From: a virus | Taxonomy: Duplodnaviria; Caudoviricetes | Length of the DNA stretch: 63,607 bases | Virus record (IMG/VR): IMGVR_UViG_3300043172_000883 | Location: 1-63,607 of that record | Reading direction: 5' to 3' (one strand) | Part shown: piece after piece, positions 1 through 49,483 of the stretch | How positions within the stretch are numbered: position 1 is the stretch's first letter | Layout of the letters: every line of letters begins with the position of its first letter | Position numbers and translations under genes: made by a program | The notes under the pieces: generated by a model | Told to the model about the DNA's origin: nothing | The model's database searches: none | Seen by the model: the letters and a program-made list of their open reading frames with translations, nothing else

Positions 1-127
1 ATATTTGTCATCATCAAATGGTGGAGTTGTATTATGCAACTAATCGTGGTATCATGGAAAGTCCATTTGAGGCGTGTTTCAAATGTTGGAAATTAAGGAG
101 AATTGAAGAATGACTAGACAAGACGAA
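1..127. repeat. Terminal direct repeat (copy 1), identical to 63481-63607; circular-assembly overlap
   Basis: ATATTTGTCATCATC...CTAGACAAGACGAA is identical at both ends; 127 nt matches a common assembler k-mer length. Confidence 0.95.
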
Positions 128-256
128 TATGAAGGACTGCTCAGAGAGCTGAACGAGGAAATAATTAGAGAATTGAAACTTTATAACAGGTTTCGTTTGA
201 CTGAATTGCATAATACTTACAAATCAGTGATAGAAGCATGGAGGAATGACAAATGA
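110..256 (+). CDS. Small hypothetical protein (48 aa, MTRQDEYEGLLRELNEE...), not in the ORF track
   Basis: ATG overlaps the stop of the preceding ORF (63294-63593 across the junction), AAGGAG upstream, and its stop overlaps the ATG of ORF 253. Confidence 0.6.
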   Translation: MTRQDEYEGLLRELNEEIIRELKLYNRFRLTELHNTYKSVIEAWRNDK

Positions 257-504
257 GTTATACCTTTCCAGAAGGTCATGCAGTTTGCACTTCAGGTCAT
301 TGTGGAACTTGTTCAGAATGTAAGCCAAAACAATTGATACCGACCAGTTGGGAACGTGGAGTGGGATGTAGTTTTCCAGGTTGTGAGGATAAGGAAGTGC
401 CACATGTTCACCGTGGCAAGTATCCAGAAATAGTGAAACCACTGGAGTACCATGCGAGTGATCTGTTGCCAGATGCGGCGAAATTTAGGGGCTTGGCAAA
501 ATGA
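253..504 (+). CDS. Cys/His-rich hypothetical protein
   Basis: GGAGG RBS, ATGA coupling, Cys/His clusters. Confidence 0.6.
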   Translation: MSYTFPEGHAVCTSGHCGTCSECKPKQLIPTSWERGVGCSFPGCEDKEVPHVHRGKYPEIVKPLEYHASDLLPDAAKFRGLAK

Positions 505-818
505 GTGACCTGTTTATCCACTTTGTATATGGGTTTATTCGAGGCATGATGACAAAGGAAGATAAGGACCTTCGTGCAGGACTACTTGAATTAGAGGAGA
601 TTATCAAGGGATATATTGACAAGGAGAAAGGAAAATGAGAAGGCAAATTTTACTGGCGATTCATTATTTGAGGCATATTTGGCATAATAGGATCCATCCA
701 GACAAATTGACTGTTTCAGGTTGTCATTTTTGTGAGGAGAGTTGGATGGAATTTGGAGAATCTGAAGAATCGCTAAAAGAAACATGTTCAATATGCCAAC
801 TAGAGCATAAGGAGGAAT

Positions 819-1031
819 ATGAAAATGAGTAAGAAACAATTATCGATAAGAATAAATGAGGACTTGCATAACAAGATGAAGGAGTTATGTGGTCCAGAGA
901 AGGAATATAATAGCGTCAGTCATTTTGTGGTGCATAAAATAGCTGAGTATGTTAAGAAGAAGGAGCTTGGTGAGAAGTGGTGGAATTCACTGACAGACGA
1001 GCAGAAATCGAAGGTGCTGGAAGATGAATAA
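819..1031 (+). CDS. Ribbon-helix-helix DNA-binding protein
   Basis: KKQLSIRINEDLHNKMKEL...SVSHFV matches the RHH pattern (alternating beta strand, helix, S-x-S helix). Confidence 0.75.
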   Translation: MKMSKKQLSIRINEDLHNKMKELCGPEKEYNSVSHFVVHKIAEYVKKKELGEKWWNSLTDEQKSKVLEDE

Positions 1032-1219
1032 AGATAAATTCGCTCATATTCTAGTGCCTGTCCCATCTGGTGGTGCATTAGCTGAGAACGCAGAGATCCC
1101 CTTAAATCTTGGTAGATTATGCTTGCAAGATTCTAAATTCAAATATGCTTATGGAAGGTGGGAAACTGATGTTTTACCAAAGTGCAAGGAATGTGAGGAG
1201 TGGTTTGGGGTGAATCCAG

Positions 1220-1468
1220 ATGAGTGAAATGAGCGAGGCTGAATGGATTTCCACGCAGCATCAGATATTTATGCTGGCTGGTTTGATAGATAAATTACAA
1301 TTAAAAGAATTCATTCGTATTTGTCGTGTTGGTGATGCTTTTGGTCCATTTGTGGATCCCACGCTTTATAGGGAAAAGAGCAAGGATATTGAGCGAGTGT
1401 TGAATATGGCGTTGGCAATACAAGAATTACAGACAAAAAGCCGACGTATTATGGAGGTTAAATCATGA
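1220..1468 (+). CDS. Hypothetical protein
   Basis: Translationally coupled ORF in a dense + strand operon. Confidence 0.6.
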   Translation: MSEMSEAEWISTQHQIFMLAGLIDKLQLKEFIRICRVGDAFGPFVDPTLYREKSKDIERVLNMALAIQELQTKSRRIMEVKS

Positions 1469-1815
1469 GTGGTGACAGGGATATGATCTCTTGGATGAGA
1501 GATTTGGAATTCGATATAATTATCAGACCACCTCCAGTACTACGAACTTGTATGTGTGGTAATATAGCAGTAAATAACCTTTTCTGCGAGAGATGCCAAA
1601 AAATAGAACCAGTATTTGATAATCAACTGATGACCCTCGATGATGCGAATGAACAGATAGTTAAAATACAAAATAGGTATTCAGCCCCCAGGGATCCTAT
1701 ACCACCACGTATCATATTTGATCCTGGGTTTTCTAAACTGAAAGCATTGTTGAAAGGAGTTACTCTGGGAGTTGGATTGCTAATAGTAATAATTGTGTTG
1801 AGGTCGATTCCATGA
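1465..1815 (+). CDS. Zn-finger protein with C-terminal transmembrane helix
   Basis: CMCG...CERC and a hydrophobic C-terminus (GVTLGVGLLIVIIVL). Confidence 0.6.
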   Translation: MSGDRDMISWMRDLEFDIIIRPPPVLRTCMCGNIAVNNLFCERCQKIEPVFDNQLMTLDDANEQIVKIQNRYSAPRDPIPPRIIFDPGFSKLKALLKGVTLGVGLLIVIIVLRSIP

Positions 1816-2670
1816 GTTTTGATGAGATAGGAAAATCTATTGCTAGAGTATTAGTTCGTTATATACAACATTATCCGTTTACGATAATAGGTATGAAAGA
1901 AAACAGCTATCAGATACTAGAAGTCAAAATAAAATGTAAACAATGCGACGAAGAAATGAGATTTCCATTAGTAGCTGAAAATTTTGATACTGACAGTCCC
2001 TTTCTTACTGGTATGACCATTACCAATTGTTATTATTCGAACCACTACAAGCATCAGGAGAAAGAACCATGAAACTCTTTAGAAGATATAAAGGGGATAA
2101 GACAGAGGTTGAGAAACTCCTTCTTGGAACTGGTAGGATAACTTACCGATATATGAGTGAGGAAATTTTGGAAAATGATATGATCTGGGAACCAAAGTTC
2201 TTTGTTGGATTTATGACTTTTATATTTTTATGGGGCGTGGCTATTGGAGTGGTGGCGATGCTGCAATGAGTTACATCAAACAATTTTGTGATGAATGCGA
2301 GACATCGCTTGAATGTTTCGAGAAGGAAGGAGATACGATTACAGATCAGAAAATTGTGTTGATCTGTATGGACTGCTATATGCAAAAGGAGAACGGAAAA
2401 TGAAGTTATTTAGTCATTTATTTCATCTTATGTTTTTCCATCATTGGTTCTCTCCTTTTAATTCTGGAGATCCCATGAGAATGGTATATTGTCGGAAGTG
2501 TTATGAAAAAAGAACAAAGCATAAGCCAATAGAATCTGTGAAACAAATGATGAAAGAATATTACCCAGGAATTAAAAGAGACAAAAATGATATTCCTATC
2601 CTAGATGCGACAGGGAATGTTCAATTTGATCAAGAATGGCTTGAAAAACATAAAAAGGAGTATGAGAAAA

Positions 2671-2913
2671 ATGAGTGAAGATAAGGTCTTAAGAGATGAT
2701 AATACTTTGGCATTTAATAATTTTGAATCAATTGATCGAGTAACAGTATATAGTTATCGAGTAGATTATTCTAGATTTAGATTATTTTGGAGAATCTATT
2801 ATAGGGTTTGGAGAATTTATCATAGAATAAGAGAGAAAGAGGAAATACTAGGCATTGATCGTTCGCCTAATGAGAATTGGAGCGATTCGTATAGGATAAG
2901 GAATTTAGAATGA
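2671..2913 (+). CDS. Small protein derived from a major capsid protein fragment
   Basis: LRDDNTLAFNNFESIDRVTV and EEILGIDRSPNENWSDSY align with this genome's capsid segments LTQDADTLAGVNLESIDRLTI and EDIFGIDRSAVSWADPY; start at 2671 inferred from the GGAG RBS and coupling. Confidence 0.75.
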   Translation: MSEDKVLRDDNTLAFNNFESIDRVTVYSYRVDYSRFRLFWRIYYRVWRIYHRIREKEEILGIDRSPNENWSDSYRIRNLE

Positions 2914-3314
2914 GTGAAAAAGCAAACTGCCCGCATTGCGGGGAAGAATATACCAAACGAGGTATGAATAGGCACATCAGCGCATGTAAGAAGAAACTGG
3001 CATTTCCAGAATTTCATAAAGGTGGAATTGTCAAGAAAGAGAATAAGATCATAGTTGTGGGAACTCCAGGACCAGGTGAGGATATTTTGAAACGGGAATT
3101 TATATCTGAGGAATTATCGGCACTTTCCCATGAGCCATCAATTGCAATTGAATTCAAAAGGGAATTTATGGAAGAACCAGTGAGTGATAAGATGAAAACG
3201 CCTTCCCAAAAAGAACCTTCAAGAATGGCAACAATTGATGATCAAGGACCTAAGAAACTGAGCTGGTGGTATCTATTTTCTGGAAAGTTCAAATTCAGGA
3301 GAAAGAAGCAATGA
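2910..3314 (+). CDS. C2HC Zn-finger protein with a tape-measure-like FHxGGxV motif
   Basis: CPHC...H...C at the N-terminus; FHKGGIV...GPGEDIL. Confidence 0.6.
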   Translation: MSEKANCPHCGEEYTKRGMNRHISACKKKLAFPEFHKGGIVKKENKIIVVGTPGPGEDILKREFISEELSALSHEPSIAIEFKREFMEEPVSDKMKTPSQKEPSRMATIDDQGPKKLSWWYLFSGKFKFRRKKQ

Positions 3315-3703
3315 TGTCTGACAATATTGAAAGATTGACCCCCATCGTTGCAAGAGATGAATTAAAACTGATGGAGTTAAAGGAACGGAAAGATCAGTTT
3401 TCCCTAATACATAACATATTGGTCGAATTTTTGAGATGGATAATGCTCATTGCATTCATATGTATTATTTCAAGCATTATTAGCCTCCCATTTATCATAT
3501 TTTTCCCTTTTATTTGGAAAGCTTCAGTTTTTATGCTTATATTCTCAATATTGGCATTGTTGTTGGCTGGAGCTTTGGTGGGCGTAACTGGTAGATGGAA
3601 AACAGAACTTCAAATTAGGGAGATTAGAAAACAATTGAGCACGAATCGCCAATTATTGGAGTTCTTGATTAAGTTGGAGGATAAGAAAAATGCCAGTACT
3701 TGA
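3266..3703 (+). CDS. Membrane protein (2 TM); true start probably ~3311
   Basis: Two long hydrophobic segments. Confidence 0.65.
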   Translation: MVSIFWKVQIQEKEAMMSDNIERLTPIVARDELKLMELKERKDQFSLIHNILVEFLRWIMLIAFICIISSIISLPFIIFFPFIWKASVFMLIFSILALLLAGALVGVTGRWKTELQIREIRKQLSTNRQLLEFLIKLEDKKNAST

Positions 3704-5106
3704 TGTTAAGAAACAGTTCAAGCCATATTTCGATAGGGACAGGCCAGAACCATATCCCTACAAGGATCCCAGTAATTGCAGTCATAGCAGATTACGCAAG
3801 GACAGACATCTATTCAATACTATTAAACGAGCATGTCCAGATTGTGGATCCAGGTTCAGATTTGTCAGCCAAAGTTCTCGATTGAAGGGGCTATTTGCAT
3901 GAGCCACAATACCATTGACGATATGGATTTTGCTACAGATGGAGAGCATCACGCCATCGATATGGCCATTAATCTTGATGTTCGTTGTACGAAGTGTGAT
4001 AATCGGTATCCCATTGAAGAGGGATCCTGGGATGAGGATGGATATCACATCAAGATCAAGCCACATATCTGTGTCTGGATAGATGATGAATTGGAAGAGA
4101 AAATTGATAAGATTAAAGAGGAGCTACTTAAATGACTGGTTTACATACAATAGATTTAGGGCTTCAAGATATCGAATTGGATGTTGATGATTGTAGATTA
4201 ATTTTTAAATCCATATCTCTTGGTGGTGTGAATATTAATAAATTATATGTTACTATTTGTAAAGAGGATATGATTAAATTGGTTGAACAAGTACTTACGG
4301 AGCTGAAAAAATGACTTACGGTTACGAGGATTGGGTTGAACTCGATTGTTTAATTGAGCATATGGGTAATCATATATTCCATGAGGACATATACGAACTG
4401 GAAAAACATGAATTTGAGAAGTTCCAGAAAGCCAGGGATTTTATCAAAACAGCACTAAAAATTCATACTGGTGCTAAATTGGTGTACAGTGAGGTTAGCA
4501 AAACATATTATATCGCAAATATGTGGTATCATCACCGCGAAACTGATCTTATTGTTGCGATTTCCAAACGAGAGGCCACAGAGGAAGAGGTTAAAAAATA
4601 TGCTAGTGCCAATTTGAAGAGGACCACCAGCCAGATAAGGGATTAACATGAGCAAACTAATACATATTGTTGACGATGAGATGTTAAGCTGTGAGGATTT
4701 CGATAAAGAAATTGACGATTATGTAAGTAATGATTGCAGCTTCAAATTACAATTCCAGAATCTATGCGAGAAATGTAGAGAAAGGGAGGCAAGCCAATGA
4801 GTAGCAATAAAAAAATAACATTTTATTTTGCAAAGGATTCAGCTCATTGTGGATCATGTGGTGAACCGATTGATGGACATCATGGAAAAATGGTAAGTTG
4901 TGATAGAATTTGGAGGAAACCACCGATGCAAAAAAATGATGCTATTACCTTTGCCAAGAAATATCTTGAAGTTAGAAAAGTTGAACAAATGCACCCTATA
5001 AATATCCCTGTACATTATAAAACCCCAAACCAACTAAATGAGAAATTAGAACATGTTTGGAATGTAGCTGTGGAATATATATTATTGGACATCATTCCTT
5101 ATTTGT

Positions 5107-5337
5107 ATGGGGAGGCATTGGACTAATATGACCAAACGAGATCAAATATTGCATATTTTGAGAGATGGTCCAGTAAAACATCAAGATTTGATGGGAAAAA
5201 TGGGGATTCGAGCCTTTTATACCGTGTTTTTCATCGATAAACTGCTAGAAGAGGGCAAAATCAAGAAAATTGTGCAACCACTGGATTTACACACAATTTA
5301 CTATGAATTGGTGAAAAAGGATGATAAAGGGCGATAA
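5107..5337 (+). CDS. Winged-helix DNA-binding protein
   Basis: RDQILHILRDGPVKHQDL...IDKLLEEGKI...YYEL wHTH pattern. Confidence 0.65.
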   Translation: MGRHWTNMTKRDQILHILRDGPVKHQDLMGKMGIRAFYTVFFIDKLLEEGKIKKIVQPLDLHTIYYELVKKDDKGR

Positions 5338-6103
5338 TATAGTGATTTATAACCAATCTAGCGAGGATATGAGTGCTATTGATGATGAATCCGTGCATTT
5401 AATCATTGGTAGCCCTCCATATAAGGTAGGCATTGATTATGAGGGCTATGATGACAATCCTTCATGGTCTAGTTATACTATGATTATGCACACGGTACTG
5501 ACAGAATGTTATCGTGTTCTCGTTCCTGGAGGTCGCATTGCTATAGTGGTGGCTAATCTTGGTCGTAAACCATATATACCGCTTAGCGATTTGTTTCGTG
5601 AGTTGCTTGATGGTGCTGGATTTACCAATATGGGAGAGATTATTTGGAGAAAATTCAAAACTAGTAATTCAACCGCATGGGGATCCTATATGAAGGCATC
5701 TCGACCCATGATTCGTGATGTACATGAATATATTGTACTTGCCACGAAGGGGACCGACCCCATGAATATATATGACAAAAGCGATATTACTAAAGAAGAG
5801 TGGGCGCACTGGACCACCAGCATATGGGATATACAACCAGAAACTGGCAAGCAGAAAAAAGGGGTTCATCCAGCACCATTTCCAAAGGAGTTGCCAAAAC
5901 GATTGATCAAATTATTTACACATAAAGGCCATACAGTACTGGATCCATTTGCAGGAAGTGGGACCACGCTTTGGGTTGCAAGGGATCTCTTGCGAAATGG
6001 TATTGGATTCGAGATCAGCGAGAAATATTATGAGAAGATGCGTACCCCCGCAGGAGTGCAAAGACTTGAGAAATTCTGGAGTGGTTGGTTTGAGAAGATC
6101 TAG
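5321..6103 (+). CDS. Beta-class amino-DNA methyltransferase (probably N4-cytosine)
   Basis: Motif IV SPPY near the N-terminus, HPAPFP, motif I VLDPFAGSGTT near the C-terminus. Confidence 0.92.
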   Translation: MIKGDNIVIYNQSSEDMSAIDDESVHLIIGSPPYKVGIDYEGYDDNPSWSSYTMIMHTVLTECYRVLVPGGRIAIVVANLGRKPYIPLSDLFRELLDGAGFTNMGEIIWRKFKTSNSTAWGSYMKASRPMIRDVHEYIVLATKGTDPMNIYDKSDITKEEWAHWTTSIWDIQPETGKQKKGVHPAPFPKELPKRLIKLFTHKGHTVLDPFAGSGTTLWVARDLLRNGIGFEISEKYYEKMRTPAGVQRLEKFWSGWFEKI

Positions 6104-7404: not shown

Positions 7405-8952
7405 TTGGCACTTTTCAGTCCTCCAGATCAGGAATTAATTTTCGAACCAAATAGTCCACTATCCTTGGCAGCACATCGACAAGCGGCATTTACTCATCTT
7501 CCATATTATCAGAAACATGTTTTGGGTATCGGTATTGCTGATTTCCATGAGGAATGGAATAATCTAGCTATGAACAATCCATATGTGGGTATAATATGCT
7601 CGCGTGGACATATCAAATCAACCTGGTCTCAAAGTCTCAATGCCCAGGAGATGTTGAGCACTCCAGAATTGATCCCGAAAAGTCAGAAACTTTTTCGACA
7701 CTATGAGAATATGACTGTGTGTTATGCCAACGATCAGACAAAAAGATGGCATGAGAATCTTAAATCCATGTTGGAATTCAGTTTTGAGAATCTGGACCTT
7801 GGTTACGAATTTATCAAGGATAATAAACTGGAATTACAACTACGTGGTCGAGCAACCAATGGAAGGGAGAATAAAAGCCAGAGTTTTGGAAAAGGAATGA
7901 CTGGCAATATCCGTATGTCTCATCCCAGTAGGGTCACATGCGATGATATTTTGAATGAACAGATGAGCATCAGTTTTGAAGAAGCTGAACGTAAATTCCG
8001 AGGATCCGTATTGGGGACCATGGTCCCAGGGACACAACTTACCGTGGTAGGAACTATTCTACGTGAGGGTGACATCCTGGATAAAATTAAAAACAAAGAA
8101 ATCGGTGGTCGATTATTCAAAGTAGGTTTCTATCCTGCGATATTGAATAATGAAAAATATGAACTTGGTCTGGAAGAACCACGCGTTTTATGGGAGCACA
8201 AACGACCATTCAGCTATCTTATGGATCAGAAGGATTTACTTGGTGAAATGGTATTTGAGATAGAATTCCTGCTCAATCCAATAAGCGATAAGCTGGCATT
8301 GATACCAAGGCATGTGATGGATACTTGCAAAGATACTAGTCTTATCCTTGGTCGTGGTGCTGCAGAGGGTGCAAAAATTGTCGGTGGTATTGATTTACAG
8401 ATCAGTCCAAGCGATGATGCCGATTGGACCGTTATTGTTTCACTTGAGGTATTGAAAGACAAGTGGAGATTTCTTAATATTCGTAGATTCAGAGGGCTGC
8501 GTTACGATGCACAGTTAAAACAAGTTGATGATGAGTATGGGACCTATAACCACGAATTGATAATTTGCGAGACAAATCAATTCCAAAAAATGTTTGCTCA
8601 GATGCTTGCTGATATGTATGAATATATTCCCATCGAAGAACAAACCACTCATCGATATAATAAACACGATGCCCAAACTGGGATTCCAAGTCTGGCTCAG
8701 TTGTACAGTAAGGGTAAATTGGTAATCCCATGGGGACATAAAGATATTCACACTCCAGAACAAATCAAACATACGCGGGAGATGATGCAAATAGTGATTA
8801 ATGAGGCCGCAAGTTGGCAATATGATAAGGATAAAGGTAAATTTGTATCGCGTGGTAGACATGATGATACGACAATTGGAACCTGGGAGGCAAGTTTAGC
8901 TGCCAGGAAAATAGAAGCTGGTTTCTCTATGAAGATGTTTGGGTCGGTGTGA
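7405..8952 (+). CDS. terL: Terminase large subunit
   Basis: Walker A variant SRGHIKST, Walker B VTCDD, coupling motif VVGT, RNase H-like nuclease GGIDL...D and C-terminal HDD. Confidence 0.92.
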   Translation: MALFSPPDQELIFEPNSPLSLAAHRQAAFTHLPYYQKHVLGIGIADFHEEWNNLAMNNPYVGIICSRGHIKSTWSQSLNAQEMLSTPELIPKSQKLFRHYENMTVCYANDQTKRWHENLKSMLEFSFENLDLGYEFIKDNKLELQLRGRATNGRENKSQSFGKGMTGNIRMSHPSRVTCDDILNEQMSISFEEAERKFRGSVLGTMVPGTQLTVVGTILREGDILDKIKNKEIGGRLFKVGFYPAILNNEKYELGLEEPRVLWEHKRPFSYLMDQKDLLGEMVFEIEFLLNPISDKLALIPRHVMDTCKDTSLILGRGAAEGAKIVGGIDLQISPSDDADWTVIVSLEVLKDKWRFLNIRRFRGLRYDAQLKQVDDEYGTYNHELIICETNQFQKMFAQMLADMYEYIPIEEQTTHRYNKHDAQTGIPSLAQLYSKGKLVIPWGHKDIHTPEQIKHTREMMQIVINEAASWQYDKDKGKFVSRGRHDDTTIGTWEASLAARKIEAGFSMKMFGSV

Positions 8953-9166
8953 ATATAGCAATCAATTTGCCAAGTAATTTTCGAATGATAATGTTGGCAG
9001 CCATGAGAAGTTCAAGAATTTCTTTGAAATCCACTTTTCCATCATCTGCTTTTTTCTCGGCAATCAATATGGTAAATCCACGTAGTTCTTTGATGATCCA
9101 GGCTGATAGTGGAATTAAAACCACATAACCAAAAATCAACCAATATGCTAGGGTTTGATAATTCAT
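8927..9166 (-). CDS. Small membrane protein, holin-like
   Basis: N-terminal TM helix followed by DDGKVDFKEILELL. Confidence 0.45.
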   Translation of the reverse strand: MNYQTLAYWLIFGYVVLIPLSAWIIKELRGFTILIAEKKADDGKVDFKEILELLMAANIIIRKLLGKLIAIFTPTQTSS

Positions 9167-9185
9167 GCTAGTAATATGTATGTTA

Positions 9186-9195
9186 ATTTATATAC
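9186..9195 (+). promoter_or_regulatory. Archaeal TATA box ATTTATATAC (recurrent motif)
   Basis: Same 10-mer at 19783, 26555 and 57673, with variants at 9716 and 10113, each upstream of + strand ORFs. Confidence 0.55.
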
Positions 9196-9260
9196 TAAAA
9201 TAGGGCATACCCACATAATATGACCATATATTTTTTAAGTCTAAAAACGAATATATATTC

Positions 9261-10653: not shown

Positions 10654-11880
10654 TTGGTTCAGCTATGGGCTAAGAATAGTACCACCCACATACTATCAAC
10701 AGGTACTTTTAATTTTGATATTGATACTCCCATTGGTACAAGTGTCCAATTACAGGATATTGAGAATGGAGAGACATGCTATTTTTATGAGGATACTGGT
10801 GGAGAGGAAGTACCTTCAGGTCAATGGACTTACAGAGTAAATATAGGAAAGGGCGGTGGTGGTGGTTCAGATCCTACCTGTGATATCACACTTGCTATTA
10901 TCAATTCAAGTGGAGTCATTGTTGATACTATCCTAGGCCCCGACAACTACACTGGGGATGCAAATGCCGGAGTCATCAAAACTAATACAGGGAGTATTGG
11001 AGTTAAGACTATTGGAGCTACTGAGAGAGTAGCATTGATTATAGATAATGTGGTTGCTGGTGCTCGTCAGTTAGAAGTCAGATTTGATGGTGTAACAGAT
11101 GATGACACAGATATTGTCAGACCCCAAACATTAGAAGGTGAGACTTATTATCAACCAATTGATGGTGCACTAACCCCCTCGGGTAGTCTTGCTAAACAGA
11201 CAAGTAAATATCCTGTAGGTGAACTAACATCTAGTGGTGAAGTAGCATCAGCTACCATCTTTAATAAAACAATTGAAGGTGAGTTAACCTCATCGGGTGC
11301 TATAGCAAAACAGACATCAAAATATCCAATAGGTGAGTTAACCTCATCGGGGGCTATAACTAAACAGACAAGCAAATTCCCCGTAGGAGAATTAACCTCA
11401 GTAGGTAGTATAGTCAAGAAAACATTTAAAACATTCACAGGGGCTTTTACTCCAGCAGGTATTGTAGCATCAGCAACCATCTTTATTAAAACATTAATTG
11501 GAACTCTTACAAGTTCAGGTAACGTTAGTAATGCTATGACATATGTCAGAGCGTTTGCTGGTACACTTACAAGTTCTGGTGTTCTTAGTGGCCTTACCAC
11601 ATATATCAGATCATTTGGTGGGACTCTTACCACAACAGGTACTGTTATCAAGAAAACAAGCACATCAATTGCTGGCGTATTGACAAGTGCAGGCACAGCA
11701 ATCAAAAAAGGATTTAAATCATTGCTCGGAACTTTGACAAATTCTGGATCATTGGGTGCTGAGAAACGGGGTGTTATTGAGGTTTTAATAGGTATAACAG
11801 AAGAGGTGTGGGCAATTAAGAATGTTTCATGTTCACTTGTGGCAAATAAAAATATCAGTGATGAGGTTGATATATTTTAG
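10654..11880 (+). CDS. Putative virion fibre/adhesin with G-x-LT-S-S-G repeats
   Basis: About a dozen ~18-22 aa repeats (e.g. GELTSSGAIAKQTSKYPI) in the C-terminal half. Confidence 0.6.
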   Translation: MVQLWAKNSTTHILSTGTFNFDIDTPIGTSVQLQDIENGETCYFYEDTGGEEVPSGQWTYRVNIGKGGGGGSDPTCDITLAIINSSGVIVDTILGPDNYTGDANAGVIKTNTGSIGVKTIGATERVALIIDNVVAGARQLEVRFDGVTDDDTDIVRPQTLEGETYYQPIDGALTPSGSLAKQTSKYPVGELTSSGEVASATIFNKTIEGELTSSGAIAKQTSKYPIGELTSSGAITKQTSKFPVGELTSVGSIVKKTFKTFTGAFTPAGIVASATIFIKTLIGTLTSSGNVSNAMTYVRAFAGTLTSSGVLSGLTTYIRSFGGTLTTTGTVIKKTSTSIAGVLTSAGTAIKKGFKSLLGTLTNSGSLGAEKRGVIEVLIGITEEVWAIKNVSCSLVANKNISDEVDIF

Positions 11881-12915: not shown

Positions 12916-13209
12916 TCATTCCTCGATCTTCTCCTTGCTTATTATCATAACATCACCAGTGAAATACACATACAACTTATCCAAGTTTTTTAACCCCATC
13001 TTTCGTACAAAATCATGGGGTACTGTCATCTTCATATACTGTCCTTTGATACTGTGGACTGCATATTTGCCCTTATAGAAAAACCATTTGGTTATTGATT
13101 CAATCAAATCATCTTGGTTCATATATATTCGTACGATCGTTCGTACAAAAAGGTTGTTATCGGCTCTCGGTTTAAATACCAACTTCCTAGACTGCTTATG
13201 AATTGACAT
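12916..13209 (-). CDS. AbrB/SpoVT-like transcription regulator
   Basis: MTVPHDFVRKMGLKNLDKLYVY...MIISK matches the AbrB pattern; divergent from the portal gene. Confidence 0.65.
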   Translation of the reverse strand: MSIHKQSRKLVFKPRADNNLFVRTIVRIYMNQDDLIESITKWFFYKGKYAVHSIKGQYMKMTVPHDFVRKMGLKNLDKLYVYFTGDVMIISKEKIEE

Positions 13210-16200
13210 ACCTTGGCACGCACGAAGATTCGGGTATATTTCCTGAACAAGAAAAATATATCACAGAATTGACCAAAGCAATAAATCCTCCGTTTACCAC
13301 ACGTTGGAGAAACAGAATTGCTAGTCGACTTGGCTTTGCACCAAGTATGAAAATGTTGGAAGCTAATAAAATGCTTACCAAACAGCTTCGAAAGATGCAA
13401 ATTATCAATAATCCCATCGCCACCAGGTTCCAAGGTGGTTCAGGTGGTGAGGCCATTGCATACCATCCAAATCAATATGAGCACATGTTTTACTCAGTGC
13501 TTACCAATTCAACTGCACGTCCTATGTTGAATACACGTAAGCGAGAATTATTCAGACAGGGTTTTGAAATCACACCCAAATTCGTTAAGAAGTGTAAGGC
13601 ATGTGAGGCTGATTTTGAATATGAGGTAAAGGAATGTGAGCTTTGTGGATCCTTTGATTTGCGTACACCAAACATTGCTGAGAAAGAATTACTTGAGGAT
13701 CTGATTGTAGAGAAGGTGAACAGGAATAATCAATCTTTGGTTGACGTATTGAAAGAATTACTCGAGGATATGGATATAACTGATGATTGTTGGCTTGCTG
13801 TTCGTAAGAATTACATGGAGATGGATGGTAAGATTATATCTGGGATCCCTATCGAATTATGGCGTGTCAATCCTGCTCATATGGCATTCAGTGTGACTGA
13901 ACACCGAGTAATCGGAGAATATGAATATACTTGTATAGATCATCGTATGTTTATCTCAAGCGATCCTTTTATACCATGTGAGGAATGTGGTAAATCGCTA
14001 CATGCTGTTATCGCTGTACAATATGAGGCGGGTATGCAAGAAATAATATTCAGATTCATTGCTGGAGAAATTATTCATTCATCCATGTATCGACCATCCG
14101 CACTTTATGGCTATCCAGGTGCACTTACACTTTATTATGATCTCAAATTGACCAATAAACAGGTTAAATATATGGCTGATTATTATGATGAGAAGAAGAT
14201 CGCCAATGCTTACCTGATGATACCCACTCGTAATGTCTCCAGTGTTAAAGAACATATGGAGGAGATGAAATTAAAATTACAGAAGGATCCGTATACTATT
14301 CCCTATACTATATACGATCCAGATAGCAAGACTGTCCCACAACTAATACGAATGGATGCCAGTCCTCAAGAAATGCAATTCATGGAGGTTCGTGAGGAAT
14401 CACGTAATCGTATGGGTGCATATTGGGGTGTTGCTCCCATTATGAATAGTGATATGTCCGCTGGTGGTGGACTTAATAATGAGGGTATGCAATTCACCGT
14501 CACCAATCGTGCCATGGAAGATGCTCAAACCACCATGAATAATAATCTGATAAGTCCTCTTACATTGATGTTTAATGTGATGGATTGGGATCTAGGCTTA
14601 CCACCAAGCGAGGAGCAAGATGAGGTGGCTGAGCTGGACCGTCAACTCAAAAAGGATCAAAGTGCGTTGTATAAGCAGCAATTGGGATTCAAAGTATCAC
14701 TACTACCAAATGGAGACTATCGATTTGAACAACCAAGCGAGGAGGAACTTGCGCAACAACAGCAAATGCAACAAATAGGAGAAGGTAATGGTGGTCCCAT
14801 GGGCGAAGGGGATCCTAATGAACAGGATACACCATTTTTTAATAATATCAATCCGCGTGGTGCTGGCAACCAGGCACTTGCGGAGAACCAATTCCAGGGA
14901 AGTCCAACCAAACCACAAGCGGATCATAACCTGGTTAAATTGCTACTGCAGAAGGGAACTCCCATCAAAACAGCCCTAGAAGTGGCTAAAGATCAGAATG
15001 GAGATAAATACAAATTCAATGATGAAATCCCTGATTGGGAATGGTCCGACGATTATGATGTAAAGGAATTTTTAACAGTTACGCTTGATGAGATCAGTCC
15101 ACACCCAGATTTTGAACTCAATGATGATGATATTCTGAAAGAAAGTCCCAGGGTACGACCAGAAACACTGGCTTATTATTTCAATGAGACAGATGAGATG
15201 CAACCGCTGGTGGTTGATGAGAGTTATAATCTACTAGATGGCTATCATCGCCATTATGTACTGAAAAACATGGACCAAAAGGATGTTCGTGTGGTAGTTG
15301 TAGGAGCCAAGTCATTGGCTAAGATGTACAAATTTTTTCTTGCCAAAGTAAAAGATCATCTACGAGCACCACCAGGCGGTGTTAATATACATGGCCAATT
15401 CTATCCTGGAGGACAATTCATTCCACAAGAAGTAATCGATGCAATGTCAGATGAGGAAAAACAGGCAGTGCAACAAGGGCAAGATGTGGGCGGTGAACCA
15501 GGTCAAGAAGAAAAGGAAGGAGATATCGAGGAATACCGAAAAGAGGTTGTTAATGAAAGACAGATCGAGCTAAATGAATATAATAGTATGTTGATGCAAA
15601 CAAATATAGAATTAGAAGGGTTAAATACTAGGCGTGATAAATTATACGAGGCAAATGAAAATTTAAGAAATGTTTTGAATAGAACCGTAAAACAACAAAA
15701 TAGGAAAGATGAAATAAACTGGGAATTATGGGAAATTTCTGATAAGATAACCCAAACTGAATCTGAAGCCACTAAAATAAATGTAAAAATAGAAAACACA
15801 TTAAAAAGAATGAATAACCCAGATTACGATCTAGCAGATAGATTATCTGAAATTGATGAAATAATTCATGCAGCATTAAAAAATGATACAATGAAGAAAA
15901 AATATCCAAGATGGATTAAACGAGAACAAAAAGATCTAGATAAAATTAATGTTGCAATAGTTAAAAAAGATGCCAGCTTGTATGATGTTGATTTTGTAGA
16001 GGATACTTGGGAGGAAACTGAACCAGTTTTGTTAGAAATGAAGGGGTATATGGAAATCAATATCAAAGAGTATAAAGAATCACTGGAGCAAACAGATGAA
16101 ACCAGTTTGGATGAAACTCTTTCAAAATATAATGAGGAGCATAAAGCATTACGAGATTTATCTATCAAAAAGGATGGAGAACATTGGCCATATTATAAAA

Positions 16201-16826
16201 ACAACGAAATGAAAACAGTGCAGGATCTTTCGGAACTAAAAGAAGCCGTTATGAACCAAGACACTTTATATATCGAGAATTTATTTAAAGAAGAACTGGC
16301 GTGGGCCATGGAGCGTTGTGAAATATCTAAAGATTTGTTACCTTATGGTGAAATTCGATTGGATATAGTAGCGGATCCTAATATTTCATATATAGGCCAA
16401 ACACAATTTTCAGACAACACAATTACCCTAAATTTGCCACTAATACAAAAAATAACTGAAAGTGGCTTTAATGTTGTGGTACTTCAAGAGGCAATTCGAC
16501 ATGAGATAGCACATTTTCTCACTGATTTGAAAACATATCCCAATTATCATCAACTACAAGAAGAATATCGAATGTTAGATTTTGATATAGGTGCTTATAG
16601 ATCCAAACCAGACAAACAAAGAGAGATGAAACAAAGAATGATTACCATTGTAAAAACAATAGATTCATATGATAGTCAGAAAATGGCCTCTTTCAATTCT
16701 AATAGGGAGGATACGTCTTTTAGAGAGGGGCACGGACAAGATTGGCAAGATACTATGTATGTATTGTTTGGTAGTAAACCACGACACCGAATGGCTGGTG
16801 GTGCAACCTTACCAGTAAGGAGTTGA
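13203..16826 (+). CDS. Portal protein fused to ParB/Srx-like and SprT-like metalloprotease domains
   Basis: N-terminal ~510 aa portal (LWRVNP, IIH...YGYP, GAYWGVAP, Zn-ribbon inserts); PLVVDESYNLLDGYHR (ParB-like); HEIAH...GHGQDW (SprT-like). Confidence 0.85.
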   Translation: MTYLGTHEDSGIFPEQEKYITELTKAINPPFTTRWRNRIASRLGFAPSMKMLEANKMLTKQLRKMQIINNPIATRFQGGSGGEAIAYHPNQYEHMFYSVLTNSTARPMLNTRKRELFRQGFEITPKFVKKCKACEADFEYEVKECELCGSFDLRTPNIAEKELLEDLIVEKVNRNNQSLVDVLKELLEDMDITDDCWLAVRKNYMEMDGKIISGIPIELWRVNPAHMAFSVTEHRVIGEYEYTCIDHRMFISSDPFIPCEECGKSLHAVIAVQYEAGMQEIIFRFIAGEIIHSSMYRPSALYGYPGALTLYYDLKLTNKQVKYMADYYDEKKIANAYLMIPTRNVSSVKEHMEEMKLKLQKDPYTIPYTIYDPDSKTVPQLIRMDASPQEMQFMEVREESRNRMGAYWGVAPIMNSDMSAGGGLNNEGMQFTVTNRAMEDAQTTMNNNLISPLTLMFNVMDWDLGLPPSEEQDEVAELDRQLKKDQSALYKQQLGFKVSLLPNGDYRFEQPSEEELAQQQQMQQIGEGNGGPMGEGDPNEQDTPFFNNINPRGAGNQALAENQFQGSPTKPQADHNLVKLLLQKGTPIKTALEVAKDQNGDKYKFNDEIPDWEWSDDYDVKEFLTVTLDEISPHPDFELNDDDILKESPRVRPETLAYYFNETDEMQPLVVDESYNLLDGYHRHYVLKNMDQKDVRVVVVGAKSLAKMYKFFLAKVKDHLRAPPGGVNIHGQFYPGGQFIPQEVIDAMSDEEKQAVQQGQDVGGEPGQEEKEGDIEEYRKEVVNERQIELNEYNSMLMQTNIELEGLNTRRDKLYEANENLRNVLNRTVKQQNRKDEINWELWEISDKITQTESEATKINVKIENTLKRMNNPDYDLADRLSEIDEIIHAALKNDTMKKKYPRWIKREQKDLDKINVAIVKKDASLYDVDFVEDTWEETEPVLLEMKGYMEINIKEYKESLEQTDETSLDETLSKYNEEHKALRDLSIKKDGEHWPYYKNNEMKTVQDLSELKEAVMNQDTLYIENLFKEELAWAMERCEISKDLLPYGEIRLDIVADPNISYIGQTQFSDNTITLNLPLIQKITESGFNVVVLQEAIRHEIAHFLTDLKTYPNYHQLQEEYRMLDFDIGAYRSKPDKQREMKQRMITIVKTIDSYDSQKMASFNSNREDTSFREGHGQDWQDTMYVLFGSKPRHRMAGGATLPVRS

Positions 16827-16830
16827 ATTT

Positions 16831-18738
16831 ATGTTAAAATATAGACCACCAACCCAAAAAAGAGAGAAAATACGACTTTATTTGAAAGCAAGAAATCCTA
16901 AACAAAATATGCAAAAACTTTTTTCACAATTAATAATTGGGAAAAAGATATCTCGTATTAATAGTGGCATGTTTAACAAAGGATGGATACATGTATCTTC
17001 TTTCGTTTCTACACTAGATGAAATTTATAATACTTATAAAATTAGTGATAAGATTAATCTTGGATTAACAAAGGTTATTCTATCAAAGGGCGATATAATT
17101 AAAGCTGAAGATGGATACTATATACTAGCTGGTCCTAATAATTGGGTCCCAATAGAAATAAGTTCCACGGATCTTGAGAAGGGATGGTCCAGTGAGAGTT
17201 TTAAGAGTGCAGTAGCACAAGGAGTGGTCCAGCGAGATAAGTCTGGAAGATTTGCATCCACTGGGACTAGTGAGGTTAAACCAGTTGTTACTCAAGAAAT
17301 CAAACCTAAACAACCCAAAATGAATGCCAAAGAAAAGAAAGTATATGATAAATACGTCCAGGCCCGTAGCTTAAAATCATCCCTGGATAAACAAATGAAT
17401 GATCTTTTGCAAAAAGAATCTTATGGATCTTATAGTGATAAGGAATTATCAGTGAGCCGAGAGAAAATTGAAAAATTAAAGCCACGAATTGAGAATCTTA
17501 ATGCAGCGGTTGAAGTGTTTGTTCAGAATACCCCTCAAGGAAGTGATATTCGTAAGATCAGAAAGAAGATTGATATGCACCAGACAAAATCTGAAGGGTT
17601 TGAATCTGAGAAAGAGGGTCTAATGGATGAATATCGAGAAATAATCCAAGCATATGATAAAAGTGATATTAGCAGCAAAAGCGGGAAGGAATTATATCAA
17701 CAACTCATAGATAAATCAGATGAGGTTGAAAAAATATCTAAGAAGAAAGAATACCAGGATAAACAGGTTAATGCCAGCCATCGTAAGCAAGATGCGATTA
17801 TGCGGGGATTGGCCCATCCATTCCAAGGGGTTGCTGATAAAATATATGCTATCGAGAAAAAAATTGGTAAAACAGATCGAAAACATAAGAAATTAGTGGC
17901 TGAAAAGGCTCATGCAGAGAAATATTATAATTGGGCCAAAGAAAATATAGATAGAAAGGACCCCAAAGGGTTTTATAAAAACACATATGATATGCGCGTT
18001 CGAATGCTAGAAGTCGCAAATCATAATTTAGAAGAATTTGAAAACAAAAAAACATTTGAGAATTTGGAAAAACAAAGAGGAGAGATTGCAGAGCTGGCAA
18101 AACAGACAACCCTCAGAAAATATGATTATTGGGGATATATTGAGGAGGATACATATAAGGGTGCAAGGAAAACTCATATGAATAAAGTATTAAATACCAC
18201 CGAGATTAGACAGTTGTTTAGAGAGGAATTTAATTATGCAATTGATCGTCTCGGTATCGATTTGAATGAACATCCAGAATTGTTGAATATAAAACTTCAA
18301 GTGACAAAAGACATGAAAAGTAGTTGGTTAGGTTTTTCCAATTCTTATACCCAAAAAATCGCTTTAAGACCAGGAAACACAGGAATTGAGATACAAGAAA
18401 CTATTAGGCATGAATTCGCCCATCATTTTGCAGATTGGAATATGGAACGTGATTACTATAAAGCCAAGAAGTTTTTGGATGAATTTACCGAAATGAAAAT
18501 TGAGGAATTTAACCAATCATCCTCTGAAGAACGAGGTCGTTTGAACAAAGAATACCAAAACTATCGTAATATTATATTTAATAGAGATCAAAAGAGATGG
18601 GATAATAAAAATAGAGGTCGTGGAGAATGGTCACAAGGGCACGGCAAATATTGGCAACAAACCATGCACGTTTTATTTGGGTCATACCCAACATATAAAT
18701 ATCATGGTGGTGTTAATTTCAGAGAGGAGGAAACCTAG
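16831..18738 (+). CDS. Coiled-coil protein with C-terminal SprT-like Zn metalloprotease; putative head cargo
   Basis: RDKSGRF motif, coiled coil, IRHEFAH...GHGKYW; paralogous to the portal C-terminus. Confidence 0.75.
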   Translation: MLKYRPPTQKREKIRLYLKARNPKQNMQKLFSQLIIGKKISRINSGMFNKGWIHVSSFVSTLDEIYNTYKISDKINLGLTKVILSKGDIIKAEDGYYILAGPNNWVPIEISSTDLEKGWSSESFKSAVAQGVVQRDKSGRFASTGTSEVKPVVTQEIKPKQPKMNAKEKKVYDKYVQARSLKSSLDKQMNDLLQKESYGSYSDKELSVSREKIEKLKPRIENLNAAVEVFVQNTPQGSDIRKIRKKIDMHQTKSEGFESEKEGLMDEYREIIQAYDKSDISSKSGKELYQQLIDKSDEVEKISKKKEYQDKQVNASHRKQDAIMRGLAHPFQGVADKIYAIEKKIGKTDRKHKKLVAEKAHAEKYYNWAKENIDRKDPKGFYKNTYDMRVRMLEVANHNLEEFENKKTFENLEKQRGEIAELAKQTTLRKYDYWGYIEEDTYKGARKTHMNKVLNTTEIRQLFREEFNYAIDRLGIDLNEHPELLNIKLQVTKDMKSSWLGFSNSYTQKIALRPGNTGIEIQETIRHEFAHHFADWNMERDYYKAKKFLDEFTEMKIEEFNQSSSEERGRLNKEYQNYRNIIFNRDQKRWDNKNRGRGEWSQGHGKYWQQTMHVLFGSYPTYKYHGGVNFREEET

Positions 18739-19816: not shown

Positions 19817-21931
19817 ATGAGTGTAGGATCTAGCCAGAGCGAGTTGATGGTAAATCAGCTTTTTAACGAGTATTTTGGAACTGATATCAATTATACCAAC
19901 GTGGACAGGAAACGCAGTCTACGCAAGAGATCCTTTGGCTCTTGGATAGAGACATTCCAGACAAAGGCCATGCAAACACTCATTATTGATGAAGAAAATG
20001 AGGGGCGTGTTTTCAAAGGTATTATCACCAGCGAGGATGTTGATAGTGATAAGGAAATCCAGAACATCGATGATTTTGCTGCCAATATCGACAAGATGAT
20101 GAATAGTGAGCGAGGTGTAATGGTTAGCGTTATCCATACTGATATGTTGCCTGGCAAGGTAGATCATATGGAGAAAACAACCCTTGGATGGATTGCTGAT
20201 AATTATCCACACAAGGCTGAGAAATTGAAAATTAATGATAATAATCGCGATACCAAGTGTATATTCTTCGAGGCTCACATATTTGATGATTATCCAGAGA
20301 TGGATGATTTCATATGGGATATGATTCAACAGGAAAAACTTGATGCTGTCAGCTTACGTGGTGTTGGTATACCAAGTGCAATTAAATGTAGTCTCGATGG
20401 TCAGTGTGGAACTGAGGTGAAAAATACTCGTATCTGGGCTTTGACACTTGCACCAAGCGGAGAACAGGCAGCGGATCGAGCGATAATACTGGAAAAAGTA
20501 AAAGATACTGAATTCGAAGGCAAGCATCCACGGGCTGATGATGGCAAATTTGGGTCCAAGCCAAGTGATAATGATTCTGATAAACCAAGCTCTAAAAAGA
20601 AAGAAGAAATAGACGAAGTGAATTGGGAAGAAGAAGCCAATAAATTGAAGAATATGAATAGAAGAGAGGTGATGTCAACAATATCTGAAATGGAAATAGA
20701 TAAATTAGGCAATCTTACTATTTCAATCAGTAATGCAAAAACATACCGTGATTTCTCCTCTACTATGTGGCGATCTATTATTAGACGATTTAAGAATGAA
20801 CAAAAAAAACTCCCTTCAATTGTTCTTTTTAATATTGTAAAAAATGAACGATCTCTTATCCAATCCGACAATTTGTGGTATTTCAAAGAGAATATGAGCA
20901 AAAACGATTATGGGAAATTGAAACGATTGGCCCAATCGGGTCATATAGATGTGACGGAACTTCATAATCCTAGGAAACCAAAAGATCAATCTAAGATGAG
21001 TAAAGAGGAGATTGCGGTCCTCAAAGAAATACGCAATGAGGTAAATAAAAAAATGCAACTACAAAAAGAGATACCATCTGATCAGGAAAAGATGATGACT
21101 AATGATGAGCCAGAGAGTACTATGGGTATTCTCAAAGAGATACGCGAGAGTGTAATTCAGATAGGCGATAATGTAACTGAAGATAACTCCGAGCTGGAAG
21201 GCGAGGATGTAATGAACGACCCCCTGGAAGAAGGCGAGATGGAATATGATGATTTCGCTGCAGAGGGTGACGAACACGAGGATGATGCCAAGATGGATGA
21301 TGAATCTGAAACAGGCGACCTCGATTCCGAATCATCAATGGATGAAGATTCTGAGTACTCAGAAGATGAATCCGAGGAAACAGACGATGATTATGAGGAT
21401 TCCGACATGGAAAAAGATGATGACATGGAGGATGAATATGAGGAAGATGAATCTTATGAGGATGATGAAGATTCTGATGATGATATAAATATCGACATCG
21501 ATATTGATGATGAGGAAGAAGAAGAGGACATGAAAAAAATGACCGACAAGAAACCAAAAGACCCGCTAGTTCGGATCAGATCATCCGAGCTGAGGGCTTT
21601 AGAGGACAGGGCTACCAATGCAGAGGCTCAACTGATTAAAATGAAACCAGTTGCCGAAAAACCTGACATTGAAGCCATGATTAAAGCGAAAGTTGCCGAG
21701 GAACTAAAAACCCTTGGTGTTCGCAAGACGAAAACACCAGAAATCGGTGCTGATGGCACTGATAAAGGTGATGCAAATGCTGGTGCTGAGACACCCGCTG
21801 CGGTTAAAAAACCCGCTGGACCAACCTTTGGCGAGGTATCCAATCATTTCTTGACAAAAATGAAAAGACCACCTACCAGACAGGAACTGCATGACCATAT
21901 GGTTATGGAGAAAACCCTCCCAGGTGCTTGA
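19817..21931 (+). CDS. Prohead protease fused to an inserted domain and an acidic scaffold region
   Basis: FKGIITSEDVDSDKE, catalytic-like H (VIHT) and S (AVSLRG), IWDMIQQEKL; directly upstream of the capsid gene; long D/E tract. Confidence 0.8.
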   Translation: MSVGSSQSELMVNQLFNEYFGTDINYTNVDRKRSLRKRSFGSWIETFQTKAMQTLIIDEENEGRVFKGIITSEDVDSDKEIQNIDDFAANIDKMMNSERGVMVSVIHTDMLPGKVDHMEKTTLGWIADNYPHKAEKLKINDNNRDTKCIFFEAHIFDDYPEMDDFIWDMIQQEKLDAVSLRGVGIPSAIKCSLDGQCGTEVKNTRIWALTLAPSGEQAADRAIILEKVKDTEFEGKHPRADDGKFGSKPSDNDSDKPSSKKKEEIDEVNWEEEANKLKNMNRREVMSTISEMEIDKLGNLTISISNAKTYRDFSSTMWRSIIRRFKNEQKKLPSIVLFNIVKNERSLIQSDNLWYFKENMSKNDYGKLKRLAQSGHIDVTELHNPRKPKDQSKMSKEEIAVLKEIRNEVNKKMQLQKEIPSDQEKMMTNDEPESTMGILKEIRESVIQIGDNVTEDNSELEGEDVMNDPLEEGEMEYDDFAAEGDEHEDDAKMDDESETGDLDSESSMDEDSEYSEDESEETDDDYEDSDMEKDDDMEDEYEEDESYEDDEDSDDDINIDIDIDDEEEEEDMKKMTDKKPKDPLVRIRSSELRALEDRATNAEAQLIKMKPVAEKPDIEAMIKAKVAEELKTLGVRKTKTPEIGADGTDKGDANAGAETPAAVKKPAGPTFGEVSNHFLTKMKRPPTRQELHDHMVMEKTLPGA

Positions 21932-23175
21932 TTATGGGTATTACACAAGAAACCGTAACCCAAGAACAGATGCAAGGCATTCAAACACATGCCAGGAATC
22001 TGAACACACAGTTGATGGTTAATCAACAGGTAAAGACTGGACGCCCACCCAAAATGGATTCCATTCACGATATGATGAACTATTATTATCCATATCAGAA
22101 CAACCCCAACTATTTCAGTGATCTGAAAAAGATTGATGACCCAGTATTGAGTGATACAACCAATTTCCTGGTCACAACCTATGGGGCCATGTTATTCTCA
22201 CAACTTGATTTGGAGGATAATATCTGGAAATTCCTACCTAAAACCACATGGGACAGAAGAGGTTGGAGAATGCTGACCGCTCGCCATCAAACTGGTGGAG
22301 GTCTTGCTGAAGATGGTGATCTTCCAGAAACTGATATGGCTGATGTTGGTATTGGCAGCGCTGCACCCAAAACGATTGTTCACACATTCGATGCCAGTGC
22401 ACAGGCCATCCTAGAGGGTGATACCGCTGATGACAGTTATGGTAATCCACTCGATGCTCAGCGACCAATTGTGGGTCAAGAGCACACCAAGGACATGAAT
22501 GCCTATCTGACGCAGGATGCTGATACCCTAGCTGGTGTCAATCTTGAATCCATTGACAGGCTAACCATTGATACAGCCACCGTTACCGCATTATCCTACA
22601 CCGCCGACGATGAGGATATATTTGGTATCGATAGGTCCGCAGTATCATGGGCTGATCCTTACAGTGACCACAATAGCGGGTCTGACAGAGATTTCAGTCT
22701 TGGTTTGGTTGATGATTTGCTCAAATCAGTGCGTAGGTATCAAATAAACAGTCCTGGAGGCCAAGGGGTGTTCATCACTGGTGAGGACACTTATGAACGA
22801 TGGAATCGTGAGCTTGCACCACAACAGAGGTTTGATGACAAGGCTAATGTTGCCAGAATAAGTACTGGGTTGAATGGAGTTCAACCAATCGGAGATCGGG
22901 AAACTGGCTTCGAGATTGCCACTTATCGTAAATATCCAGTCGTGATATCCAATGATGTTGCACAGGATACGCTAAGCAGGATTTACTTCTTGTGGCTTGG
23001 TCAAAATGCAACCAATATGAAGGTTCTTGCTCCCACACAGTACTATGAGGCTGGATGGTCGCATGGAGATCCCTTTATTCTTAACAAGTTAGGAACCGAG
23101 GGCGCGTTCGTTACATTCTGTGAATTGAATTGTAAGAACTTCCCAGCAAATGGATCCATCAGGGATCTTAAATAG
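21928..23175 (+). CDS. Major capsid protein (HK97 fold)
   Basis: 415 aa after the protease; YGAMLFSQL...LPKTTWDRRGWR resembles capsids of archaeal tailed viruses; ATYRKYPVVISNDV. Confidence 0.88.
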   Translation: MIMGITQETVTQEQMQGIQTHARNLNTQLMVNQQVKTGRPPKMDSIHDMMNYYYPYQNNPNYFSDLKKIDDPVLSDTTNFLVTTYGAMLFSQLDLEDNIWKFLPKTTWDRRGWRMLTARHQTGGGLAEDGDLPETDMADVGIGSAAPKTIVHTFDASAQAILEGDTADDSYGNPLDAQRPIVGQEHTKDMNAYLTQDADTLAGVNLESIDRLTIDTATVTALSYTADDEDIFGIDRSAVSWADPYSDHNSGSDRDFSLGLVDDLLKSVRRYQINSPGGQGVFITGEDTYERWNRELAPQQRFDDKANVARISTGLNGVQPIGDRETGFEIATYRKYPVVISNDVAQDTLSRIYFLWLGQNATNMKVLAPTQYYEAGWSHGDPFILNKLGTEGAFVTFCELNCKNFPANGSIRDLK

Positions 23176-45844: not shown

Positions 45845-46009
45845 TCTTAATCACCACTGGTTTACCATTGCTCTTGGACCTCGCATACATATCTAACAAA
45901 TGATCCAAGAAATCATCATGTGTTATATTCTCTCGTCTGAGATCGCCCTTGTGTCGCTCTTTCTTTTCCAAGAATCGCTCATGTGTGGCTCGACTGATAG
46001 TTATCACAC

Positions 46010-49479: not shown

Positions 49480-49483
49480 AGTA

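Follow-up and report, generated by a model that had tools for sequence, protein, structure and literature searches.

Here we describe the gene at positions 2671 to 2913 (plus strand) of a complete, 63,607-base record of a tailed virus, the whole of which was analysed and is referred to below as the window. The gene encodes a stand-alone protein of 80 aa (P0001), one of a family of nine small sequences, which is homologous to an internal segment of the same virus's major capsid protein (MCP) and which we call the mini-MCP. Its reading frame runs from an ATG at 2671 to a stop codon at 2911-2913, and a Shine-Dalgarno-like AGGAG lies 10 nt before the ATG on the same strand (2656..2660). An alternative in-frame ATG at 2662 would give a product of 83 aa, in agreement with the length, though only the length, of the cluster member P0053. 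The start of the gene overlaps the stop of the preceding ORF by 8 nt and its own stop overlaps the next ATG by 4 nt (ATGA), and together with the Shine-Dalgarno-like site these overlaps bear out an earlier note on this DNA, made from the letters alone, which had described the ORF as intact and coupled. The gene forms part of a chain of about 20 small ORFs on the same strand that extends from 110 to 6103, with overlaps of 4-20 nt at nearly every junction; many members of the chain have paired CxxC motifs (zinc-ribbon-like), and the last is an N6/N4 DNA methylase. PHROGs contained no family for any of the 10 neighbouring small ORFs tested, and PADLOC gave no match for the mini proteins or their neighbours.

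The genome ends of the virus are 127-bp direct terminal repeats, and its terminase (7405-8952, Terminase_6C) and a 1207-aa portal-like protein with a weak Phage_portal match (13203-16826) are encoded between the small-ORF chain and the MCP gene. Neither tRNA genes nor Rfam families at the gathering threshold were found in the 63,607 bases of the window. The GenBank phage matches to the MCP comprise nine records, from the Haloarcula viruses HVTV-1, HVTV-2, HCTV-1, HCTV-5 and HCTV-16 and a Methanofastidiosa virus, and because all nine are archaeal tailed viruses the host is probably an archaeon. The sole sequencing run in which this DNA was found is a marine sediment metagenome, which is probably its source, with no RNA run listed, and queries of IMG/VR with the MCP and the terminase returned no closer relatives of the virus. 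Several further features of the genome were recorded as observations in their own right. Directly after the gene of the portal-like protein, an ORF at 16831-18738 encodes 635 aa, of which the C-terminal ∼250 are a paralogue of the C-terminal part of the portal-like protein (27% over 256 aa, E 2e-15), and a 704-aa ORF at 19817-21931, which directly precedes the MCP gene and has a very long Asp/Glu-rich run and no Pfam family, may be a protease-scaffold fusion. Tandem repeats lie within two ORFs, namely four copies of 54 nt (18 aa) at 11163-11438 within ORF 10654-11880 and two copies of 66 nt at 32479-32610 within ORF 32110-33273. On the minus strand, a gene cluster at 45137-52436 has the look of a DNA-modification locus: it contains a methylase-like ORF, a DpdA-like ORF (46010-46777), a B12-binding radical SAM protein (48184-49479), a DUF5906 primase-helicase-like protein and a DUF5131 protein.

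The MCP gene occupies 21928..23175 on the plus strand and encodes 415 aa with an HK97 fold (phrog_24667 'major head protein', E 1.4e-58). Its AF2 model (pLDDT 73.1, pTM 0.72) matched HK97-fold capsids, including HK97 and SU10, with a Foldseek probability of 1.00, and its relatives carry Pfam PF17236 SU10_MCP, the nearest isolates being the Haloarcula tailed viruses HVTV-1, HCTV-1 and HCTV-5. The segment homologous to the mini proteins is MCP residues 188-245 (22489..22662, plus strand), which begins within the final turns of helix 174-194 and stops immediately short of strand 245-247. That helix is the longest in the core of the model, and by HK97 topology we take it to be the spine helix. Past this helix the chain is irregular, with short helices at 209-213, 216-221 and 226-229 and isolated bridge residues at 231 and 234, and the copied stretch, modelled at pLDDT 70-84, is presumably the start of the A-domain, judging from the order of secondary structure and HK97 topology. 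At the C-terminus of the MCP, residues 409-411 and 414 are strand or bridge in the same model.

Comparison of the mini-MCP with the MCP by BLASTP aligned residues 8-78 to MCP 196-249 with 23/71 identities (30.8 bits, E 2e-6) and a 16-residue gap at the linker, which upholds the suggestion of the earlier note that two capsid-like motifs occur in the same order, and at the same capsid coordinates, as in the MCP. The alignment is also significant against shuffled sequences: the Smith-Waterman score was 70, while the shuffles had a mean of 29.5, an SD of 4.5 and a best score of 50, and none of the 2000 came up to the score of the real pair. Searched with tblastn, the six-frame translated window yielded the MCP gene at 22513-22674 (E 1.1e-4) with the next match at E 0.63, and in an all-against-all comparison of the 432 window ORFs of at least 40 aa the pair (E 1.9e-4) was one of only four non-overlapping pairs at E ≤ 0.01. 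An MCP HMM likewise matched the mini ORF at E 7.6e-7. Motif 1 (residues 7-26; 2689..2748, plus strand) is homologous to MCP 195-214, the segment right after the long helix, and motif 2 (residues 57-74; 2839..2892, plus strand) to MCP 229-245 (..DI.GIDR..W.D.Y). The C-terminal tail RIRNLE (2893..2910, plus strand) resembles the MCP C-terminus SIRDLK, a likeness that is short and was not recovered by hhalign. A further candidate, derivation of RIY in the linker from the MCP strand SRIY (residue 351), was put down to chance, since its position does not follow the MCP order with respect to motif 2 and no secondary alignment came from hhalign. The likeness at the DNA level has been lost, with a best blastn match of 15/17, in keeping with the divergence already remarked on. 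By score the window's own MCP ranks only 15th of 258 among the MCPs nearest to the mini-MCP, that is, no closer than others, which fits old descent together with retention of a family-wide consensus. The mini ORF had no Pfam or PHROGs match at E ≤ 1, and tblastn against GenBank phages gave no match.

The mini-MCP has relatives of its own. A phmmer search of 1.84 billion representative proteins gave P0049 (97 aa, E 5e-7) and P0052 (67 aa, E 5.4e-4) as small homologues; four long hits (1173-2230 aa, each matching in several stretches) were taken to be repeat or low-complexity matches to the linker, and the one inspected, P0048, is a repeat protein. When the window copy, P0049 and P0052 were combined into a profile and run against 5.8 billion proteins of 36-170 aa, nine small proteins including that of the window were returned, the new ones being P0054, P0055, P0056, P0057, P0058 and the weaker P0059 (E 3.5e-4). 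Family members range from 67 to 112 aa, are 32-47% identical to the window copy and, for P0049, P0052 and P0054-P0059, come from contigs of 796-4509 bp. Three elements are common to their alignment, namely motif 1 (..TLA.N..ES.DR.T), a basic/aromatic block (SR.R.LWR.YY...I) and motif 2 (D.YGIDRE..W). All three are present in the window copy, while P0052 is without a clear motif 2 and the helix of P0059 is degenerate. The C-terminus is more variable: an MCP-like ending (..IR[DN]L[KE], compared with ..IRDLK) occurs in three members, namely the window copy and, with an exact RDLK, P0049 and P0059; four have a different tail, and P0052 and P0055 break off shortly past motif 2. The family is previously unnamed, with no Pfam, PHROGs or PADLOC model; a literature search found no account of MCP fragments serving as accessory genes, and an ESM Atlas query with P0054 gave a best score of 0.76 and no usable lead.

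Profile comparison extends the homology to the family as a whole. With hhalign, the nine-member mini profile matched a 28-member MCP profile with a probability of 98.0% (E 2.5e-13) over 58 columns, which are equivalent to MCP 188-245 and include gaps of 12 and 6 residues at the insertion; the profile of three minis had already given 96.7% (E 3.7e-10), and P0049 and P0052 match MCPs independently (E 2e-9 and 4e-8). In a tree built from 62 columns, and weak as such a tree must be, all nine minis fall on one side of a branch with an SH-aLRT of 98, outside the sampled MCPs. This branch, and an insertion common to the family, fit a single origin of the mini proteins.

We put the probability that ORF 2671-2913 belongs to a selected gene family derived from the MCP at about 0.9. 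In a joint alignment with 62 shared columns, the MCP consensus residue was carried by the minis at a mean of 0.60 in the 18 columns conserved in at least 23 of the 28 MCPs, as compared with 0.21 in the other 44 columns, and column conservation in minis and MCPs was correlated (Spearman 0.38, p 0.003). MCP residues E207, S208 and D210 (E19, S20 and D22 of the window copy) are kept in all nine minis, and L201, A202, R211 (R23 of the window copy), G233, I234, D235 and R236 in eight of nine; N191, S237 and H248-S250 have been lost. The retention of MCP-invariant residues by nine members thus agrees with the proposal of the earlier note that selection has acted at the protein level. An alternative that must be weighed here is that the ORF is an inert scar, the decaying remnant of an old MCP duplication or recombination that is open by chance. 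In favour of this, the gene is absent from the 18 more distant relatives searched. Against this, the nine members have diverged to 32-47% identity and still share a derived insertion and the MCP-invariant residues, protein likeness has been kept while DNA likeness was lost, and a Shine-Dalgarno-like site and tight coupling occur in both of the available genomic contexts. Conservation appears to go beyond neutral decay and the frame is unbroken, and although an intact frame in 9/9 members is partly a matter of ascertainment, since they were drawn from predicted-protein databases, we regard an inert scar as improbable.

The second of those contexts is L084, a 1127-bp metagenome contig and the only other readable one, which encodes a 112-aa homologue that is 42% identical to the window copy (E 5e-12) and also matches the window MCP (E 1.5e-7). 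A GGAGG lies 11 nt before the ATG of this homologue, and the gene is flanked by overlapping small ORFs, two of them zinc-ribbon-like, which are non-homologous to the neighbours in the window. In the window the end of the mini-MCP gene is separated from the start of the MCP gene by 19,015 bases, close to the ∼20 kb given previously, and the gene lies not beside portal, protease or scaffold genes but 19 kb upstream of the head module.

The ORF immediately upstream of the mini-MCP gene (2400..2678, plus strand, 92 aa) raises the question of whether the two should be read together. Its residues 37-74 (nt 2508-2621) are weakly like MCP residues ∼38-80 and align to positions 23-67 of the MCP profile, and it matches all four of the MCP positions conserved at 90% or more in this stretch (Y54, D70, P72 and L74). 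The MCP HMM gave E 0.061 for this ORF among 432 ORFs; as a single test it scored 7.5 bits, which none of 3000 shuffles reached (best 4.3), while hhalign gave E 0.0016 with a probability of 15.9% and BLASTP against the MCP was below significance. On balance we think it fairly probable that the likeness to the MCP N-terminus is real. The two ORFs would then carry MCP pieces in MCP order, and they overlap by 8 nt on an A5 run (2667-2671); slippage by one base there would bring the two frames together. It is therefore conceivable that ORFs 2400-2678 and 2671-2913 are one shrunken copy of the MCP, either expressed by a +1 shift at the A5 run or broken there. Several observations speak against this: the upstream likeness is weak (the hhalign and BLASTP values above), a Shine-Dalgarno-like site of its own precedes the ATG at 2671, and a Logan contig (depth ∼53), which may stem from the same sample, is identical over 2200-3100 with 0 gaps. 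The other eight members are also stand-alone (in the alignment, five begin 6-7 residues ahead of the window copy and three start further downstream), and the ORFs upstream of the homologue in L084 are not MCP-like. Because of these last two observations the conserved unit is, on the sequence evidence, the stand-alone mini gene, and we consider a single shrunken MCP copy distinctly improbable. A separate case was seen in L064, where a 44-aa ORF at 9117-9248, ∼750 bp upstream of the MCP match, resembles the MCP N-terminus (E 1.8e-6) and the MCP match itself begins only at residue 85, so that the MCP gene there may be split or frameshifted. The same 44-aa ORF was the one match of the MCP HMM among 11,107 small ORFs.

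Between the two motifs the mini-MCP has a basic/aromatic helix (residues 33-56; 2767..2838, plus strand) that contains the insertion of 16-18 residues relative to the MCP. The linker thus differs from that of the MCP as the earlier note had claimed, but it is not a random replacement, since the insertion is conserved across the small-protein family: the core R..WR.YY is common to eight of nine members, with part of it retained in P0059, and the helix is conserved at least as well as the MCP-like motifs. The six close members have 35 invariant columns, mostly at positions 34-71 of P0055. The AF2 model of the mini-MCP is poor overall (mean pLDDT 58.5), and residues 33-60, predicted as a helix, are the only part at ∼69-85.

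The composition of this helix bears on where the protein acts. In the window copy it is predicted to be amphipathic, with an Arg stripe, a hydrophobic moment of 0.87 and eight Arg in the linker, and an aromatic-rich amphipathic linker makes peripheral membrane contact conceivable. The membrane-tethered capsid epitope favoured by the earlier note is nevertheless unsupported, since none of the nine members has a transmembrane-grade segment: the maximum mean Kyte-Doolittle hydropathy over 19 residues is 0.02 for the window copy and does not exceed 0.69 in any member. The eight Arg of the linker also speak against a tether. To this reading we now give almost no credence.

A stronger rival is that the mini-MCP is a neofunctionalised small protein in which the capsid motifs serve only as a folding scaffold and the activity, unrelated to capsids, resides in the Arg/aromatic helix, for example in binding nucleic acid or a peripheral membrane or in regulating a host process. 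It would account for the insertion being the most conserved block in the six close members, for the strongly amphipathic helix and Arg stripe of the window copy, and for the zinc-ribbon-like small ORF neighbours, which are typical of regulators. The Arg stripe, however, is peculiar to the window copy, with the moment of the same helix being at most 0.49 in P0055 and 0.64 in P0052, and a mere scaffold role does not predict that MCP-invariant residues should be preferentially kept (0.60 versus 0.21). We therefore think this account rather unlikely, while recognising that, with the insertion helix at least as conserved as the MCP-like motifs, the active part of the protein may be a new element and not a mimic.

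The distribution of the family seems to be narrow or patchy. Across 18 larger IMG/VR records that encode the same type of MCP (38-42% MCP identity), of which one has terminal repeats, one is a provirus and 16 belong to the class 'linear', often a sign of a fragment, the mini profile matched the MCP gene only, and among 11,563 ORFs from 83 loci no ORF of less than 200 aa matched it better than E 2.8. Mini profile A2 retrieved MCP genes only from IMG/VR and nothing from the JGI metagenomes or the GTDB genomes, while profile A4 retrieved nothing from IMG/VR and, from metagenomes, only the 1127-bp contig L084. The search for orthologues that the earlier note had proposed yielded eight more small proteins; its question of whether the ORF is absent in relatives is addressed only weakly.

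What the mini-MCP may do is suggested chiefly by what it has kept. A fragment without more than 80% of the fold still preserves the invariant charged residues of the MCP, and as these residues cannot serve the missing fold, a soluble, trans-acting mimic of that MCP surface seems to us the most likely explanation. The retained residues could alternatively maintain a self-contained local structure, but contact with a partner that the MCP also contacts is the favoured possibility. Such a mimic would not be membrane-anchored and would occupy the normal binding partner of the MCP stretch. That partner might be a neighbouring MCP subunit or the scaffold, and the mini-MCP would then control the timing of assembly or poison the assembly of related co-infecting viruses; if the partner is instead a host factor by which the capsid protein is recognised, the mini-MCP would act as a decoy. 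We would put a soluble mimic or competitor at slightly short of even odds, divided roughly equally between assembly modulator and decoy. Complex prediction of the mini-MCP with the MCP (alignments A2 and A1, run without controls) gave a score of 0.00 against a mark of 0.32, to which we attach no weight either way. A point against the mimic reading is that no capsid-sensing defence is known to us in archaea.

A broader and more speculative proposal is that viruses related to the archaeal tailed viruses maintain an accessory gene family of their own, built from that part of the MCP which is least free to mutate, as a general and undescribed strategy of mimicking a 'self-epitope'. The mini-MCP would then be made ahead of the capsid protein and would either blind a putative host system that senses this stretch or poison the head assembly of competing relatives, and the second, adjacent gene of the window virus may likewise derive from the MCP N-terminus. 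We consider this strategy unlikely.

If the mimic reading is true, the family would mark the stretch of an HK97-type MCP that is read by a neighbouring subunit, the scaffold or a host sensor, and it would offer a natural 60-residue probe for finding that partner. It would also give a handle on the detection of tailed viruses by archaea and on the timing of head assembly, both of which are little known. Even if its function proves to be different, the mini-MCP is a clean case of a fragment of a virion gene becoming a new small accessory protein.

Among known systems, the closest is the HK97-fold MCP family of the virus itself (phrog_24667), to which the minis are related by homology across MCP 188-245, with both the conserved motifs and their order shared. 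Unlike that family, they are without the N-arm, E-loop, P-domain and most of the A-domain and cannot form the fold, they carry an inserted helix of 16-18 residues, and the window copy is encoded 19 kb from the structural module. Because it is homologous (hhalign probability 98.0%) yet has 80 aa and lacks the complete fold (∼300 aa or more), we class the mini-MCP as a derivative of the MCP family and not as a member. Duplicated or captured capsid genes whose products co-assemble or interfere with capsids include T4 gp24, the PICI protein Ccm and, in mammals, the Gag-derived Fv1 and enJS56A1; these keep whole folds or domains, whereas the mini family keeps ∼60 residues and has added a new helix. 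On the side of recognition by the cell, CapRel senses an MCP (PMC13728456), and a short internal MCP peptide, Gol of T4 gp23, suffices to trigger the Lit protease (PMC12926258), which illustrates that such a peptide can alone be what a cellular protein recognises. Gol nevertheless lies within the MCP and has no gene of its own, its effect is to set off defence and not to block it, and it is cited here as a parallel and not as a homologue of the mini segment. The nearest functional parallel is the anti-DSR2 protein DSAD1 of phage SPbeta, which 'mimics TTP to trap DSR2' (PMC10973363). Like the proposed activity of the mini-MCP, this is a phage accessory protein imitating a virion protein, the tail tube, and filling its pocket on a partner; DSAD1, however, mimics the tail tube and not the capsid, belongs to a bacterial system and is biochemically proven, and its abstract does not describe it as related in sequence to its model, whereas for the mini-MCP the descent from the capsid protein is clear and the partner is putative.
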